This document shows positions 1-6,403 of a stretch of 64,000 bases of DNA, in pieces. Both the position numbers and the translations under genes were made by a program. The notes beneath the pieces were generated by a model that worked only from the letters and a program-made list of their open reading frames with translations, had not been told where the DNA came from and searched no databases. Numbering within the stretch: position 1 is the first letter of the stretch; every line of letters starts with the position of its first letter. Source of the stretch: a virus (lineage: Duplodnaviria > Caudoviricetes); the IMG/VR virus record IMGVR_UViG_3300034101_006325, positions 128,001-192,000 of that record; one strand, written 5' to 3'.

Positions 1-1208
1 AATTTTGCTTTTTCAATATCATTTTTAGTTTGGTCAATTAGGACTGACCAATCTCTATCCGGGTAATTTTTTAATTGTGATTTTGAAGCACTTGCTTCTT
101 TATTGGCAATTTCATGCATTCTATCAAAAATGTCAAGATCTAAAAATTTAGAAAGAATTGCTCTCCTCTTGGCAGATCCTTGAGATATGAACTGATTAAT
201 TTCTCCTTGAGCAGAAAGAGAAGTCATTAGAAAATCTTCGTGACTTCCAATTAAATTTTTAATAATTTTTTCAGTATCGGTTCTCTGCTCTCCGTTTAAT
301 TCGTCTACTTCACCATCTTCTTTCATCCTGTAGACATTTAAAGAAGTGGTCGCGCTAATTCCTTTTTTAGACTCAGACTTTGTTGTTTGACGCTCAATAA
401 TGTAGTCTGTTCCACTATGATTAATGATCGCTCTTGCTGAACAATAAGGTTTTCTAATATTGCATATGTGAATATTCTTCATTGGACCACGATCAGTGGT
501 ATTAAACAAAGCATACATGATCGTTCCAACAATAGAAGATTTTCCGATTCTATTGGCTCCAAATATTCCAACAATTCCATTGATTGCATCAAAATTTATA
601 TAATTTTTTTCTCCATAAGAAAAAACATTGTTAAAATTAAGATGTCTTAAAGACCACTTAGAATTTCTAAGTACTTCTTCGTTAGAAGCAACAATAGATA
701 ATATCTTTTTAATTGAGTCAGAAGTTTTAGTCCATGTTTCTTCAGAAAAATTAGAATTTTTATGATGATCTTTGACCAATTTTAAAAGAACATCAGGAGA
801 CCTAAGGTCAGACTTGGCCAAAGATGCAGCCCCAGCTTTGACTACAGACCGATCGATTGTAACGTCTGACTTAAATGTTATTTCAGAAGCACCTTTTGAA
901 TATAGAACAGAATTAATTGATTGAATTTCTTTTTGAGTAACGTGAGAGTTAGATCTAATTCTGTATCTTGTTCCCTTTGGATAATTTTTAGATGCTTTTA
1001 AAAGTTCGTCTAACTCTCCTGTCCACGTCAGAGTTACAAAAGGTTTTGGATTTGGCAATTTTTTAAAATTAATTGACCAATCTTCTGATGACTCAATATC
1101 CCACAATAGATAACCATGATCTAGGTCTTCAGCATAATTTTGTTGCAAAGGAGTTCCTGGATATGCAATCCAGGGTTTCTTTACCTTTATTTTTATTTTT
1201 TTGCCCAT
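1..1208 (-). CDS. sbcC: SbcD C-terminal part fused to SbcC/Rad50-type ATPase (partial, runs off window start)
   Basis: Not in the ORF track. Hand translation from ATG at 1208 is open through 1208-541 and again at the window start, same frame: MGKKIKIKVKKPWIAYPGTPLQQNYAED (SbcD motif V), WSLRHLNFNNVFSYG, Walker A GANRIGKSS, Q-loop FLMTSLSAQG, KRRAILSKFLDLD. Confidence 0.88.
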   Translation of the reverse strand, partial: MGKKIKIKVKKPWIAYPGTPLQQNYAEDLDHGYLLWDIESSEDWSINFKKLPNPKPFVTLTWTGELDELLKASKNYPKGTRYRIRSNSHVTQKEIQSINSVLYSKGASEITFKSDVTIDRSVVKAGAASLAKSDLRSPDVLLKLVKDHHKNSNFSEETWTKTSDSIKKILSIVASNEEVLRNSKWSLRHLNFNNVFSYGEKNYINFDAINGIVGIFGANRIGKSSIVGTIMYALFNTTDRGPMKNIHICNIRKPYCSARAIINHSGTDYIIERQTTKSESKKGISATTSLNVYRMKEDGEVDELNGEQRTDTEKIIKNLIGSHEDFLMTSLSAQGEINQFISQGSAKRRAILSKFLDLDIFDRMHEIANKEASASKSQLKNYPDRDWSVLIDQTKNDIEKAK

Positions 1209-1248
1209 GTGAATTGATCTTTATTCAACAATTGTGCAGCCTGGATAT
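1156..1248. repeat. 9-bp direct repeat CCTGGATAT (1156-1164 and 1240-1248), 84 bp apart and in frame, flanking the SbcD stop/restart
   Basis: Read directly. Both copies encode Y-P-G on the minus strand (KYPGC and AYPGT). Confidence 0.8.
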
Positions 1249-1865
1249 TTTGACAATTCTTCTTCTTCTATTTCGATGGTTACTTCTCTAAAGTCCAAAA
1301 ATTGCATTTTGTGTATGTCTCCCAGAAGTACAAAATCAAAGTCTTTGAAAAATTCGACTGTTAAACCTTCTTCTATATTCCAGCCTGTTTCACTTACTGA
1401 TCCATTGACAGGCCCATGATAGCAAGCAATATTAACATCGCCTTTTATGGGTTTTACATTCTTCCAGCCTTCTTCGTCAAAAAGGCTGAAGACGCACAGG
1501 TTGTATCCTTTTTGAATTTCAAAGACTCCGCTTTTTTTGTAAAGAAAAATTCTAGGATTGTTAAGCGCAGAAACTATTGGTGAAACTGCATCTTGTCTAG
1601 ATAAATTAACTAGATTGCCGTCATGATTTCCTAGTGTTAAATGAACAGGTGCAATTTTGCTCATTGCATCTAACCACCAAGTTAGATGCTCAATATATTC
1701 AGGTGATATTCCTGTTGTTTTAGTATGAAAAATGTCACCACCCACAAAAATGTGATTCACACTATTTTTTTTGCAATCATTAATGAATGCTGTAAAAACT
1801 TCTCTATACTCGTCATGACGAGTCAAGCCTCGCCAGTGAACGTCTGCAGTATGTGCGATTCGCAT
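1221..1865 (-). CDS. sbcD: SbcD/Mre11 metallophosphoesterase nuclease, N-terminal part (motifs I-IV)
   Basis: ADVH, GGDIFH, GNHD, YHG and GDIH motifs. ATG at 1865 preferred to TTG at 1874. Ends at TAA 1221-1223, before motif V. Confidence 0.9.
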   Translation of the reverse strand: MRIAHTADVHWRGLTRHDEYREVFTAFINDCKKNSVNHIFVGGDIFHTKTTGISPEYIEHLTWWLDAMSKIAPVHLTLGNHDGNLVNLSRQDAVSPIVSALNNPRIFLYKKSGVFEIQKGYNLCVFSLFDEEGWKNVKPIKGDVNIACYHGPVNGSVSETGWNIEEGLTVEFFKDFDFVLLGDIHKMQFLDFREVTIEIEEEELSKYPGCTIVE

Positions 1866-1903
1866 TTTAATCAAAAATATACATCAAAAAGAAACTGTTC
1901 AAT

Positions 1904-2887
1904 TTAGATGCTAAATCTAATTTCAGTTGCTTTCTTCATTTTTCTTAAAAAATCATCTTCCCAATTTATTATTTTCGCATCAGATAGTGCGTTCTCGAAT
2001 TCCAACTTAGACATATTTCCGGGATCTTTCCACTGTCTAACGTCAACAACTAAAACATCAATGTTATATTCCATTAATTTTTTTGCAATTTTTGGAGTTT
2101 TCTTATCCCACATGTCACCATCGAGTGCCAACCAAATAGGCGTATTATTTAAAAGAATTTTATTAAATATTTCATGTCTTTCGTCCAGATCAGACCCCAG
2201 CAAAGCTGTGGAATTTTCAGGGCATTTAACCAAATCAAATGCACCTTCTACTAGAACAAGTCTCTTCTGCCAGTCCAAGTTAATTTCATTAAAAACTATA
2301 GGATTTTTATCAACATCAGGATTGTCGTACTTGGGTTTTTTATCTTTGTCAATTGCTCTTGCTACAAAATAGTTTAAATTTCCTAGTGAGTCAAAAGAAG
2401 GCATGATCAACCTTCTTTTCCAACGAGGTTCATCAGAAATTCCTAACTTAAAATACCATGCATCTTTGTCAGTTAATCCTCTCGAATAAAGATAACGCCA
2501 CGCTGCCTTGACATCAGGATCTAAATCGTTTGCAAGAGAAAGAAGTTTAAAATCTTTTGGAAGACAAATTTTTTGTTTTTCTTCTTTTTCTCCTGTGACT
2601 AGTCGAGAAGTCCCGGGAGATATTCCGAACATTTCCTTGAAAGTTTCAAGTTGAAGTTGTGTACCGTATTTCCTGATGAGTGGAATAATTGTTCTTGATT
2701 TCCATCCACATACCCAGCAATGGTTGGCCGACGTATCTGTTCTAATTGAAAGTTTCTTTTTAGATTGGTCAGAAGGCGCACATATGGGGCAGCGTACGTC
2801 AAAATTAATTCCATTGGAAGATACGTGACCTTTGCCAAAGATAGATTCAAAAAAAATAATGCTGTCAGAGACAGAACGGATTCCCAC
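1904..2887 (-). CDS. DNA primase (zinc finger + TOPRIM; DnaG/T4 gp61-like)
   Basis: CPIC...CWVC zinc finger, LVLVEGAFD, and DGD (DxD) TOPRIM motifs. Confidence 0.88.
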   Translation of the reverse strand: MGIRSVSDSIIFFESIFGKGHVSSNGINFDVRCPICAPSDQSKKKLSIRTDTSANHCWVCGWKSRTIIPLIRKYGTQLQLETFKEMFGISPGTSRLVTGEKEEKQKICLPKDFKLLSLANDLDPDVKAAWRYLYSRGLTDKDAWYFKLGISDEPRWKRRLIMPSFDSLGNLNYFVARAIDKDKKPKYDNPDVDKNPIVFNEINLDWQKRLVLVEGAFDLVKCPENSTALLGSDLDERHEIFNKILLNNTPIWLALDGDMWDKKTPKIAKKLMEYNIDVLVVDVRQWKDPGNMSKLEFENALSDAKIINWEDDFLRKMKKATEIRFSI

Positions 2888-2918
2888 ATAATTATCCTAA
2901 CAAATAATCATGAGATGT

Positions 2919-3473
2919 TCATAAGAGGCATGCAGCCCTGGCTATCACATATGCATCCGTAGCATCTCGACTCCAGTCTACTGGTTCTCCATTTTTCTTC
3001 TTTGGCCATACAACATGTTTTAAGTCATTCTCTGACATGTATCTAAAAACTTGTTCTTTGCCATTTATGCCCGCAATGGACGTCTTCTGCAATTTTATTC
3101 CGCATGATTTTCTTGCTGTTGATGAAGCTATGTACTGAGGATCTACACCAAATATTCCTCTTGAAATATACGAGACAATGCCATTGAATCTCATCAGCGT
3201 AGTTATCGTTGCTGCGGAAGACATTCCCGCCCTGAAACCCATCAGTGGTTCCTCAAGATAGACTTTGTAGTCTCCTGGAAATTTATTTTTCAAATCACCG
3301 AGGGATCTTGATGTAAAATCTGCCTTATCCCAAAGTGTATTGCACTTCTTGTATTCAATCCTATCGAGATAAATAATGTGCGATCCTGAGTCATCCCCTG
3401 CTTTGTTTGCATCGAGTATTGACACACCTGTCACAGATGTCGAAACATCCAAGCCTATGATATAGTTCTTCAC
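2919..3473 (-). CDS. RuvC-like Holliday junction resolvase
   Basis: IIGLDVSTSVTG, YLEEP and DATDA acidic motifs of the RuvC family. Confidence 0.8.
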   Translation of the reverse strand: MKNYIIGLDVSTSVTGVSILDANKAGDDSGSHIIYLDRIEYKKCNTLWDKADFTSRSLGDLKNKFPGDYKVYLEEPLMGFRAGMSSAATITTLMRFNGIVSYISRGIFGVDPQYIASSTARKSCGIKLQKTSIAGINGKEQVFRYMSENDLKHVVWPKKKNGEPVDWSRDATDAYVIARAACLL

Positions 3474-3513
3474 GTGTCATTATTTAAACACAGATTGGTC
3501 AGGTAAAATAGAA

Positions 3514-3924
3514 TTATAAAAGACCTAATTCTTTTAATTCTATTTCTGTCAATATTTTATAAATGGCGCCGTGTGTCACGCACCACTGCTCTGCAGCTGC
3601 AGTCTTCTTCTTGATTGCTGCCTGTTGTAATTTTCTGCGAGGCTTTACTTCTAAAACCTCAGAATGACCATCCAAATAAGAAACGAAAAAGTCTGGGTAG
3701 TATTTGCGAATCTTTTTTGTCCTAATGTTTGAGACATATTCAATGACAGTCTTTTCATAGCTCCAATGTGAAATATCAGGTTGATCATCAAGATATTTCA
3801 TGACAGCAAGTTCCCACCCGCTTCGATATTTGCAGATCTGACCAGTCTTGGAAGATGTATACTCACCTCGGTGGTAATGACCTTTTCTCTTAACTTTTCT
3901 ACGAATCTTTTTTTTTAAAGTCAT
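3514..3924 (-). CDS. T4 gp4-like head completion nuclease (TnsA N-terminal-like PD-(D/E)XK)
   Basis: YRSGWE, SWSYE, KYYPDF, EVKP motifs. ATG at 3924 lies 7 nt past the upstream stop and is preferred to 3942. Confidence 0.8.
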   Translation of the reverse strand: MTLKKKIRRKVKRKGHYHRGEYTSSKTGQICKYRSGWELAVMKYLDDQPDISHWSYEKTVIEYVSNIRTKKIRKYYPDFFVSYLDGHSEVLEVKPRRKLQQAAIKKKTAAAEQWCVTHGAIYKILTEIELKELGLL

Positions 3925-3931
3925 TAGAAGA

Positions 3932-6403
3932 TCACCAGTCAAATCCTACCTTAAAAAGAATTTTTTCGGGTTCTCTTTTTAACACTGGTTGTGCAAGATT
4001 GGCTTTTGCAACTACATTGAGGTTCTCATCGTGCATATTTATTTCTGTAATATAGACAAATAAATCAGTATCGAGCGGATCATTGGATGCACTTATAATT
4101 TCTTTGAGTGGTGCATAGGACCCATTGGAAGACGAATTTAATAGTCCTGAAGGCGCCAAAAGCGCATACTTGCTTGAATGAAGCTGATATTCTCCTCTAA
4201 AAGACATCTCATATTGATCTTTACCGAAAAAGTTTATGTGTGGACTTTTGAGAAATACGACGCCTTCATTGTAGAATATATTTCCAATAGACGATTTTTT
4301 GCTATGGGGTGTTAAAGAATCTGCTCTGTATAGATTGCCATTTCCGTCATCTTTTATTGTTATAGAAACAGCTCCTCCGGAGCCTGTCATATTGCTGTCT
4401 TTTAAGACAAATGATTTAGGCAAAATTCTACTGCCATAAAAAAGGTTGCTTATGTCGAAAAATGTAATCTGATTTGAAGATGGGTCTTTGGTTCTCTCGT
4501 AAATTGAAAGTGGAAATCCTTTGATGAAAGAAGGATCATATAGCTCTTCATTTATTTGTGAAATTTTATTTTTTATTGCTTCACCAGGAAGCAAACCTGG
4601 GTACTCTGGATTAAATCCTAGCAGTTCTTCATATACATCGGGAAGACTCTCATAATCGTTAAAATCGCCCAAAACTGAAGTGTCATTTAAAAGATAATCC
4701 AACCCAATTAAACTGGTGTTTAGTCTTCCGAATGAGTCTATTCCTTTATTTGTTACTTCATTTACTATAAGACCATAGTTTGGATTAAAGTTTCCATCAT
4801 CACAGGGCAGTATAGTTAAATTTCTTTTTCTAACAAAAGGATCATCATAAAGTATATCATTAGCTACTTGTGGCGAAGTAGTTGTTGTCTTTACTGACGC
4901 AGATAAATGATGTAGACGTGCATAGTTTTGATTGGCAAAATCTTTGACAAAGTTATCTAAGTTAATATAGTGTCCTCCCACGCCGAAAGACATTCCTACA
5001 TTAAATGGATCGTTGGTATAACCATCGACCTCATAGAAAGGTGTCAATAAGACGCCTCCATAAGATGTTGCTGGGCCTCCCAAAGGAGTAACAAATTTTC
5101 TGTATGGAGCTTTTTCAACAAAAAATGGAGGAAGATAAAAAGCAACATCAGTGGAAGTTGTTTCTTGAGATAAACCACGTCCTTTTAGATTGTTGATATC
5201 CAAATTGGTCTTATATGAACGATAAATTGCCAGATTATGAACCTCTGCTTTTAAAGGATGTCTCAAAAGATATGTGTCTGGCTCGTCTTGGGTCCCGCCG
5301 CTGTCTATTAGATTTGGCAATCCTTCTCTTTCTGATTCAATGTCGCTAAAAAAGTACGACATTCCGCTTGTTCCCTGATTGGTTCCTTCAAAATAATTTC
5401 CAACAAATAACACAGTTGGTTCATCACTGTTGTTAAAAATTTGTGGTGAAATTGTTCCAGAAGGCACAGTAAAGTAACCGCAATCTTTGCCATTTACATA
5501 AAATGAGCCAGTTCCATCATTTACTAAATTAGTTCCCCACCTGACTATTACATGATTCCAAGTGTTCCAGTCCAAAATATTGTCGTCAGAATGAAAAATT
5601 AAATCACTAGGATAGCTTCCTGGAATTGCTTCTGAAGGAGGAATGTCAGCGCTATGACTTAATTGTAACTGCAATTTAAAACTTGCAGGATAACCATTTT
5701 GATCTTTTGAAGAACCAGTGACAAGAGAAAGACAATAGCTTGATGATAAATGAAAAATTGTTCCTGCACGAAATTCGCCTGGGTCTAAATAATCCTCTTT
5801 ATACCTAGGATTAATATAACATTCAAATGTGAAAGGTCCTGATAATGAATAAGTTCCTCCCACAAAACCTGGGGGAGTTACCAAGTTATTATTTTCAATA
5901 TTTGCAAAAAGAAGTGCAGAAGTCGATGGAACATCGGGGGAAGTAAAAAAATTTAATGAATGATAATTTGTGTAGGCCCAGTTGGCTGTCTTGTAATTAA
6001 TTCGATAATGAGGAATTAGAATATCTTTTACATTCAACTTTCGCAATGTGTCCGCAGTAAGATCTGCCGTAGGAACAAATCTTCTTATGCCTATTGTCTT
6101 CTTTTTCTTTATGGACGTGTCTTGTGTGTTGACCTTTTCTAGATATTGTTCGACAATCTTTGAATAATCCTGAGCGTTATTCAGGACTGCTTGACTCATG
6201 TAATTTTCTAAATTTTCATCATTAAACACAGACTGCTGAAACATCGCAAGAGGACGTATCTCTTTCTCTATGTTAGAAGCACGAGGATATAGATTAATCG
6301 CTCCAGTTGTCTCTCCCAAAGAATTTGATTTAAAAAATCTTTCAGGATTAATAACAGTAGTAATTAATTCTACATCCTCAGCTCTTACGGGTATGATTGA
6401 CAT
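3932..6403 (-). CDS. Virion structural protein with LamG/concanavalin-like domain and tail-collar-like C-terminus
   Basis: FTFECYINP and WNHVIVRW...FYVNG (LamG-like). C-terminal YITEINMHDENLNVVAKANLAQPVLK. Confidence 0.6.
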   Translation of the reverse strand: MSIIPVRAEDVELITTVINPERFFKSNSLGETTGAINLYPRASNIEKEIRPLAMFQQSVFNDENLENYMSQAVLNNAQDYSKIVEQYLEKVNTQDTSIKKKKTIGIRRFVPTADLTADTLRKLNVKDILIPHYRINYKTANWAYTNYHSLNFFTSPDVPSTSALLFANIENNNLVTPPGFVGGTYSLSGPFTFECYINPRYKEDYLDPGEFRAGTIFHLSSSYCLSLVTGSSKDQNGYPASFKLQLQLSHSADIPPSEAIPGSYPSDLIFHSDDNILDWNTWNHVIVRWGTNLVNDGTGSFYVNGKDCGYFTVPSGTISPQIFNNSDEPTVLFVGNYFEGTNQGTSGMSYFFSDIESEREGLPNLIDSGGTQDEPDTYLLRHPLKAEVHNLAIYRSYKTNLDINNLKGRGLSQETTSTDVAFYLPPFFVEKAPYRKFVTPLGGPATSYGGVLLTPFYEVDGYTNDPFNVGMSFGVGGHYINLDNFVKDFANQNYARLHHLSASVKTTTTSPQVANDILYDDPFVRKRNLTILPCDDGNFNPNYGLIVNEVTNKGIDSFGRLNTSLIGLDYLLNDTSVLGDFNDYESLPDVYEELLGFNPEYPGLLPGEAIKNKISQINEELYDPSFIKGFPLSIYERTKDPSSNQITFFDISNLFYGSRILPKSFVLKDSNMTGSGGAVSITIKDDGNGNLYRADSLTPHSKKSSIGNIFYNEGVVFLKSPHINFFGKDQYEMSFRGEYQLHSSKYALLAPSGLLNSSSNGSYAPLKEIISASNDPLDTDLFVYITEINMHDENLNVVAKANLAQPVLKREPEKILFKVGFDW

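Follow-up and report, generated by a model that had tools for sequence, protein, structure and literature searches.

An SbcD-SbcC fusion gene cut into two genes in a Caudoviricetes genome, and the charged tails at its break

The split gene and the place of the break

We studied a gene for an SbcD-like (Mre11-like) nuclease that lies in two pieces in the window, by which we mean the whole 64,000-nucleotide stretch analyzed here (positions 128,001 to 192,000 of the IMG/VR virus record IMGVR_UViG_3300034101_006325; Duplodnaviria, Caudoviricetes). All features of the split gene are on the minus strand, and the two pieces keep the original order, strand, and locus of the broken gene. A first-pass annotation, made from the letters of the DNA and their open reading frames, had read piece 1 as stopping at a TAA (1221-1223) with an in-frame restart 12 nucleotides further on. 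The open reading frames and their translation confirmed this reading, and its counts of seven glutamates in the last 23 residues of piece 1 and six lysines in the first 11 residues of piece 2 were right as well. The features are as follows.

1224 to 1874, minus strand: piece 1, the SbcD/Mre11 phosphoesterase domain, 217 residues if read from the TTG at 1874 (from the open reading frame list and the translation)
1224 to 1289, minus strand: acidic C-terminal tail of piece 1 (R196-E217), predicted as strand, short helix, YPG turn, and strand; absent from unsplit homologues
1221 to 1223, minus strand: TAA stop codon ending piece 1, the same in contigs of runs X2, X3, and X5
1209 to 1220, minus strand: in-frame spacer of 12 nucleotides; in relatives, a homing endonuclease gene occupies the same spot
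1176 to 1208, minus strand: ATG and basic N-terminal head of piece 2 (M1-K11), a strand of alternating lysine and hydrophobic residues in which I7 is invariant
834 to 1175, minus strand: residues 12 to about 125 of piece 2, comprising the final beta-sandwich strands of the nuclease (PWIAYPG, GYLLWDI) plus the capping domain
1 to 641, minus strand: fused SbcC/Rad50 ATPase part of piece 2, with the Walker A motif GANRIGKSS (Pfam AAA_23, 2.8e-11)

Piece 1 has 214 residues if started at the ATG at 1865, which is the start codon of its relatives (the nearest cluster, P0003, also has 214 residues). Piece 2 starts at the ATG at 1206-1208 and has 861 residues. It exits the window at the left edge, and its full length was taken from the parent record, a 200,303-bp IMG/VR virus contig, in which the complete open reading frame is L003 4623..7208.

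Pfam Metallophos matched piece 1 (5.8e-15) over model positions 1-190/191. Piece 1 also matched the SbcD-like family phrog_100, and piece 2 matched the SbcC-like family phrog_77 (5e-55). The metal motifs D11-x-H13, G46-D47..H50, G82-N83-H84-D85, H153, and G185-D186-I187-H188 were invariant in 26 split relatives, and all five are within piece 1. The usual metal motifs of Mre11 are DxH, GDxxH/D, GNHD, H, and GHxH, and by this five-motif numbering we take GDIH to be the last of them, motif V. The break therefore falls after all the metal ligands and not between motifs IV and V. The first-pass annotation had placed it between those two motifs, inside the nuclease domain; the second part of that placement holds, and the first does not, given this numbering and the extent of the Metallophos match within piece 1. 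Motif V itself (window 1311-1322, minus strand) reads GDIH in the whole family, including Microcystis phage Mel-JY01, an aspartate replacing the first histidine of GHxH.

The break site remains within the nuclease fold: it lies in the beta-hairpin that connects motif V with the YPG(S/T)P strand, where profile alignments gave only about 10-12 residues for the SbcD proteins of S. aureus and E. coli. An AlphaFold2 (AF2) model of the read-through chain, with the TAA set to glutamine for folding only, had a mean predicted local distance difference test score (pLDDT) of 89.4 and matched by Foldseek both Mre11 3qg5_D (E 2e-13) and E. coli SbcD 4m0v_A (TMt 0.68). Both pieces are needed to complete the nuclease and capping-domain fold. 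Mre11 and Rad50 are spread over two chains in the window rather than united in one polypeptide; the capping domain of Mre11 and Rad50 remain connected within piece 2. The window gene is an SbcD-SbcC (Mre11-Rad50) fusion that has been cut again into two genes.

Such Mre11/Rad50 (SbcD/SbcC) fusions are abundant in aquatic viral metagenomes (Yoshida, Claverie, and Ogata 2011, PMC3175470). The cut in the window spares the old boundary between the two proteins and lies inside the Mre11 nuclease domain. In phage Mel-JY01, a primase-like gene and a small open reading frame are followed by a single protein of 1066 residues, in which the nuclease precedes the ATPase. This protein has only a short link at the break site, and the unsplit relatives form one chain of about 1045-1066 residues.

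Conservation of the split, its tails, and the endonuclease cassette

The gene is split at the same point in 31 of 80 related viral loci, the other 49 being unsplit. At the protein level, 467 clusters matched piece 1 (E <= 1e-10), and among the best 120 of these 467, 117 are stand-alone proteins of 213-233 residues that end in the same tail. Related split genes with intact frames number in the hundreds. The second gene of the split loci is often in another frame, and the spacers span -14 to 924 nucleotides. The stop at the junction is TAA, TAG, or TGA, and the start codon at the head is always kept. In 16 loci, stop and start overlap by four nucleotides (NTGA), which we counted as translational coupling. 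Searches of phage records gave little: blastn with window positions 1-3500 found no match, and tblastn matched only four distant records.

The nearest relative, 94% identical and from other samples, has the same 12-nucleotide gap, and a relative with 80% identity has a TAG followed by 6 nucleotides at the junction. Contigs from three independent runs, belonging to other studies (lake water, viral metagenomes), span positions 1208-1223 unchanged. A sequencing error and a private mutation are excluded by these independent contigs together with the same junction in relatives, and so is the assembly error against which the first-pass annotation had proposed a check.

The acidic tail and the basic head were present in every split copy (32/32 split loci; 117 clusters). 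Conversely, the insert was not found as a read-through in any of 50 unsplit loci or 98 unsplit clusters, the latter being those among the best 120 matches of piece 2. The link in all of these unsplit copies, loci and clusters alike, has either 25 or 30 residues. The first-pass annotation had pointed to relatives for both a conserved stop-restart with E-rich and K-rich tails and a sense read-through of the insert: many relatives have the former, and none of these unsplit copies has the latter.

The tail follows the consensus R, D/E, V, E, L/I, x, I, D, E, x, D, L, x, K, Y, P, G, A, E, V/I, I/L/V, E; at several of its positions, 86-96% of the 117 clusters agree. It is a defined motif rather than a low-complexity sequence. 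Its net charge has a median of -5 and is negative in 115 of the 117 clusters; that of the head has a median of +6 (22 clusters). Lysines become arginines in GC-rich relatives with the basic character kept, and the last tail residues are retained in the AT-rich window even though they spell no Shine-Dalgarno sequence there. Both observations argue that the constraint acts at the protein level.

In the GC-rich loci L048, L064, L065, L069, and L083, the last tail codons (Glu-Val-Ile) read GAGGTGAT, about 7 nucleotides before the overlapping start of piece 2. This is a strong Shine-Dalgarno-like word, and the end of the tail doubles there as a ribosome-binding site. We also considered whether the YPG of the tail repeats the YPG of the protein body as a target-site duplication. 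Only 8 nucleotides are common to the two in the window, which is too little to make this claim.

The gap between the two genes is where an endonuclease gene is found in relatives. In loci L006/L008, the gap of 924 nucleotides holds an open reading frame of 300 residues with zinc-finger-like repeats and a C-terminal nuclease domain. It matched phrog_3339 ("homing endonuclease," 4e-17) and phrog_559 (1.8e-16). Its matches to Pfam Vsr (3.7e-4) and DUF559 (1.8e-3) were weak and did not reach the curated cut-offs. Overall, PHROG "homing endonuclease" families matched gap reading frames at 4e-17 and 2e-11. Their products are putative endonucleases, which would have the unsplit allele as their target. 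The more distant locus L086, whose SbcD is 39% identical to that of the window, is split at the same point, has recognizably similar tails, and carries in its gap a copy of this endonuclease with 39% identity. A search with piece 1 of L086 returned L086 itself as its sole match, and a PDB sequence search with the L086 endonuclease returned nothing meaningful. The 3' end of the gap reading frame overlaps the start of piece 2 by 16 nucleotides in L006 (3866-3881) and by 8 nucleotides in L086 (3360-3367). Remnants of it persist in the gaps of L004/5 (last 40 codons) and L007 (last 19 codons). In a further, distinct clade of 20 split loci, the endonuclease is missing and the genes overlap in most cases, and the gap of the window consists of the 12-nucleotide spacer only, with no endonuclease gene.

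The cassette has moved between backbones. Between L004, L006, and L007, DNA identity is 93-97% in the tail and 96-100% in the head, against only 57-77% in the backbones. L007 tracks the unsplit L043 (82-95%) save for positions -23 to +254 around the cassette; within that interval it resembles L004/L006 (91-100%) instead, and such mosaic co-conversion tracts fit homing. When the insert was left out of the tree, at least seven changes of the split state were required, and an approximately unbiased (AU) test rejected a single clade of split alleles (delta lnL 569, p 1.7e-5). The window, L166, and L167 form an endonuclease-free lineage. Because relatives hold the endonuclease or its remnants in the gap, and because nearly identical cassettes sit on divergent backbones, we read the window as an endonuclease-free end stage. 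An origin of the tails in a homing endonuclease cassette was absent from the reading of the first-pass annotation.

Three further observations concern the junction and its endonuclease. The two lengths of the link in unsplit copies (loci L013-L079; clusters P0126-P0242) correspond to two types, RDGKPW for 25 residues and RDxLDGKKKPW for 30 residues; the 30-residue form occurs in clades where the window-type cassette spreads and could be a homing target or a scar of cassette loss. In L073 (4149-4458), the gap holds a different open reading frame of about 105 residues with CxxC pairs, unrelated to the Vsr-like endonuclease; the junction apparently accepts inserts of different kinds. Outside the window (G000:C1:113686-113868), an open reading frame of 495 residues weakly matched the nuclease domain of the gap endonuclease (E 8.6e-6, 36% identity); the phage may have a further nuclease of the same kind.

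Predicted geometry of the proposed clasp, and the neighboring genes

Complex prediction for piece 1 with piece 2 gave an interaction score (ipSAE) of 0.90, compared to 0.00 for the best of three controls; the mark applied to this score is attained by 58 of 80 solved complexes and by 2 of 110 mismatched pairs. Three prediction runs had at least 93% of their contacts in common, with a partner pLDDT of at least 73. The predicted interface comprises residues 180-205, 207, 210, and 212-217 of chain 1 and residues 2-21 of chain 2. The listed contact pairs (195 with 11-13, 193 with 14-15, and 191 with 15-16) give an antiparallel register in which the two residue numbers add up to about 207. If this register is extended outward, acidic residues 197, 199, 201, and 203 would face basic residues 10, 8, 6, and 4, and V198, I200, and I202 would face V9, I7, and I5. 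The family consensus agrees with such an arrangement.

The AF2 model of the read-through chain has a strand at 191-203, a helix at 204-209, and strands at 214-221 and 224-238, with pLDDT values of 90-96. The same strand-helix-strand-strand pattern was predicted for a relative of 65% identity whose tail is less acidic. This second model was used only for the secondary structure of the insert; its confidence is low just after the head because the alignment matched the unsplit YPG to the YPG of the tail. The turn before the basic strand has only two residues, which makes the basic strand a neighbor of the terminal strand of piece 1, and in the models it appears to sit between both strands of the tail. 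The first-pass annotation had proposed that charge-complementary strands pair with each other, and two structure predictions indeed place the basic strand against the acidic one. Beyond the tails, piece 2 is predicted to supply core strands beside beta-1 (contacts of residues 5-9 of chain 1 with 33-36 of chain 2) and beside the strand before motif V (181-184 with 13-16).

Directly upstream of the nuclease gene lies a primase-like gene (window 1904-2887, minus strand), an order that is kept in Mel-JY01 (L001:2800-3783) and in metagenomic relatives. Three genes upstream of the split gene, positions 3514-3942 (minus strand) encode a 142-residue protein with a TnsA-like endonuclease N-terminal domain (Pfam, 3.3e-14), which is adjoined by an 823-residue protein without a Pfam family. 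A scan of positions 1-3600 for promoters and terminators gave counts not above those of shuffled sequences, and no site was found on the minus strand between both genes.

Precedents, competing explanations, and significance

An SbcD-like gene broken in this manner has been described before. At one Lake Gatun locus from the Global Ocean Sampling (GOS) data, Dassa, London, Stoddard, and Pietrokovski (2009, PMC2677866) reported an SbcD-like gene in two open reading frames on the same strand. According to the passages on this freshwater locus, a Vsr-like free-standing endonuclease reading frame lies between the halves, there is no intein, and unsplit homologues lack the 25 C-terminal and 9 N-terminal residues that the halves have in addition at the break. 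The same passages assign no role to the extra residues, and fractured loci that lost their endonuclease are listed in that paper as well. Judged by this description, L006/L008 and L086 have the same layout. In contrast, the window has no endonuclease and only a 12-nucleotide spacer: the endonuclease between the halves that characterizes the fractured genes in those passages is found in L006/L008 and L086, and as remnants in L004/5 and L007, but not in the window.

The second precedent comes from Aeromonas phage Aeh1, in which NrdA was split into NrdA-a and NrdA-b by insertion of the free-standing homing endonuclease gene mobE (Crona et al. 2010, PMC3045599). The oppositely charged tails that arose from this insertion were shown to be essential, and similar tails were predicted elsewhere; they are essential for the heterodimers to dimerize and not for the joining of the fragments. 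In both cases, an essential enzyme is cut between adjacent beta-strands of its active-site fold and carries unique, oppositely charged C- and N-terminal tails, and the endonuclease reading frame overlaps the downstream piece in L006 and L086 as mobE overlaps nrdA-b. The two cases differ in that Aeh1 has an HNH-type MobE, a basic C-terminal tail, and an acidic N-terminal one, whereas the SbcD family involves another host gene and another endonuclease family, with reversed polarity. Moreover, the role of the tails was established by experiment in Aeh1 and is drawn from predictions for SbcD, and the SbcD family offers many natural variants with and without the endonuclease. In view of these two reports, the proposal that the locus represents a new kind of protein-pairing module had to be given up.

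We consider it likely that the fusion gene was split by an endonuclease cassette and that its separately translated halves rejoin non-covalently, with the tails acting as a clasp. Large lake phages of this family encode SbcD-SbcC (Mre11-Rad50) as a single-chain fusion. The cut falls at the turn of the beta-hairpin behind the last metal motif and comes with an insert of about 33 codons, which would lengthen both hairpin strands: piece 1 would gain an acidic strand followed by a short helix, a YPG turn, and a last strand, and piece 2 a basic strand. The two adjacent genes would be translated separately and the halves would reassemble without a covalent join, piece 2 providing the last core strands of the nuclease fold. 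The basic strand would pair antiparallel with the acidic strand, beside the final strand of piece 1, and the tail would thereby serve as a clasp that is presumably needed for assembly. The insert would have arrived with a free-standing Vsr-like homing endonuclease gene, whose product would spread the cassette of tail, endonuclease, and head into unsplit alleles by homing with co-conversion, and this gene would later decay. The window would represent the end stage, in which the endonuclease is lost, the 12-nucleotide spacer remains, and selection keeps the split and the tails.

Several points speak against this interpretation. The tail is less conserved than the core (mean pairwise identity of 57% compared to 73%), and no ribosome-binding site is evident before the start of piece 2 in the window. 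The cassette of the window is 72-82% identical to its counterparts on a backbone of 57-73%, which gives no sign of recent transfer, so that for the window an endonuclease origin rests on the homology of its tails with those of cassette-bearing relatives. As for the models, the good score of the complex may partly reflect a fold with many solved structures, and alignments built by the authors were used. The strand order and the Glu/Lys register were extended from the listed contacts and the secondary structure, not from coordinates. Finally, the native interface outside the tails is already large in the complex model, and in Aeh1 the tails are not needed for fragments to associate.

These last two points are also what favors regarding the tails as passenger sequence, an explanation that we judge improbable but worth weighing. 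The halves would then join via the native fold interface, and the tails would be dispensable or would serve higher-order assembly, solubility, or expression of the downstream gene. The last function would fit the Shine-Dalgarno-like GAGGTGAT at the end of the tail in several GC-rich relatives, and an A-rich start could aid initiation. Yet the motif and its charges are kept over 117 clusters, including lineages that have long been without the endonuclease; the same residues stand in the AT-rich window, where they form no Shine-Dalgarno sequence, and arginine is kept in GC-rich genomes. Both models, in addition, put the tails into one ordered sheet at high confidence. A single polypeptide could arise if the in-frame TAA were read through or bypassed, as the in-frame spacer of 12 nucleotides in the window might suggest. 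We hold such recoding to be very improbable, since in most relatives piece 2 is in another frame or overlaps piece 1 by four nucleotides, the stop varies between the three codons, the start codon of the head is always kept, and there are no matching take-off and landing codons. Bypass of the gene-60 type was rejected together with stop-codon recoding.

There is likewise hardly any chance that the tails are remnants of a degenerate split intein that still ligates the halves by trans-splicing. The layout resembles that of the fractured genes described by Dassa et al. in which split inteins flank a Vsr-like endonuclease gene, and window-type tails have a cysteine directly after YPG. However, this position is an alanine in 101 of the 117 clusters, the head lacks the terminal His-Asn and nucleophile, and tails of 22 and 11 residues are far below the size of an intein. 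The Pfam search gave no Hint or intein domain, in agreement with the earlier remark that splicing residues are lacking, and the SbcD-like locus of Dassa et al. is likewise described without a split intein (PMC2677866). What the halves share with split inteins is that they would meet via long, antiparallel, oppositely charged strands, and that the inteins of fractured genes, as described there, flank the same Vsr-like endonuclease family. Unlike them, they have neither a Hint fold nor splicing residues, and their association would stay non-covalent. We assign practically no weight to a defect confined to the window contig, be it a nonsense mutation, pseudogene decay, or faulty assembly. It would account for a bare in-frame stop and for nothing else, but the three independent runs are identical at the junction, the 94%-identical relative has the same junction, and intact split genes are found by the hundreds. 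The first-pass annotation had already argued against a simple nonsense mutation, and the recurrence of the split with both tails in 31 of 80 loci and 117 of the best 120 clusters bears it out.

With respect to the published cases, the window is a further, endonuclease-free example of a described arrangement, and its novelty is modest. The present analysis adds the extent of the family, the strict co-occurrence of tails and split, a specific register of the strands, a decay series, and mosaic evidence that tail and endonuclease moved jointly. Going beyond the clasp, we tentatively raise the idea, which we think rather doubtful at present, that the acidic tail (22 residues, strand-helix-strand) and the basic strand (11 residues) suffice by themselves as a pairing module that can be moved between proteins. 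For the cassette, such a module would be its own antidote, allowing it to enter the interior of an essential fold with neither intron nor intein. In that case, the same pair would be expected to join other proteins that are cut at a hairpin. The short strand pair could serve as a tag for pairing protein fragments, the principle itself being already published.

Unlike the single published cases, this family offers hundreds of natural variants. Every stage is present in it: the uncut gene, the gene cut with an endonuclease, the decaying endonuclease, and the compact two-gene form found in the window. Besides introns and inteins, the arrangement would be a third route by which a selfish endonuclease can occupy an essential gene and leave it functional. 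Through two short complementary ends encoded by the insert, the halves of the protein probably come together again non-covalently.

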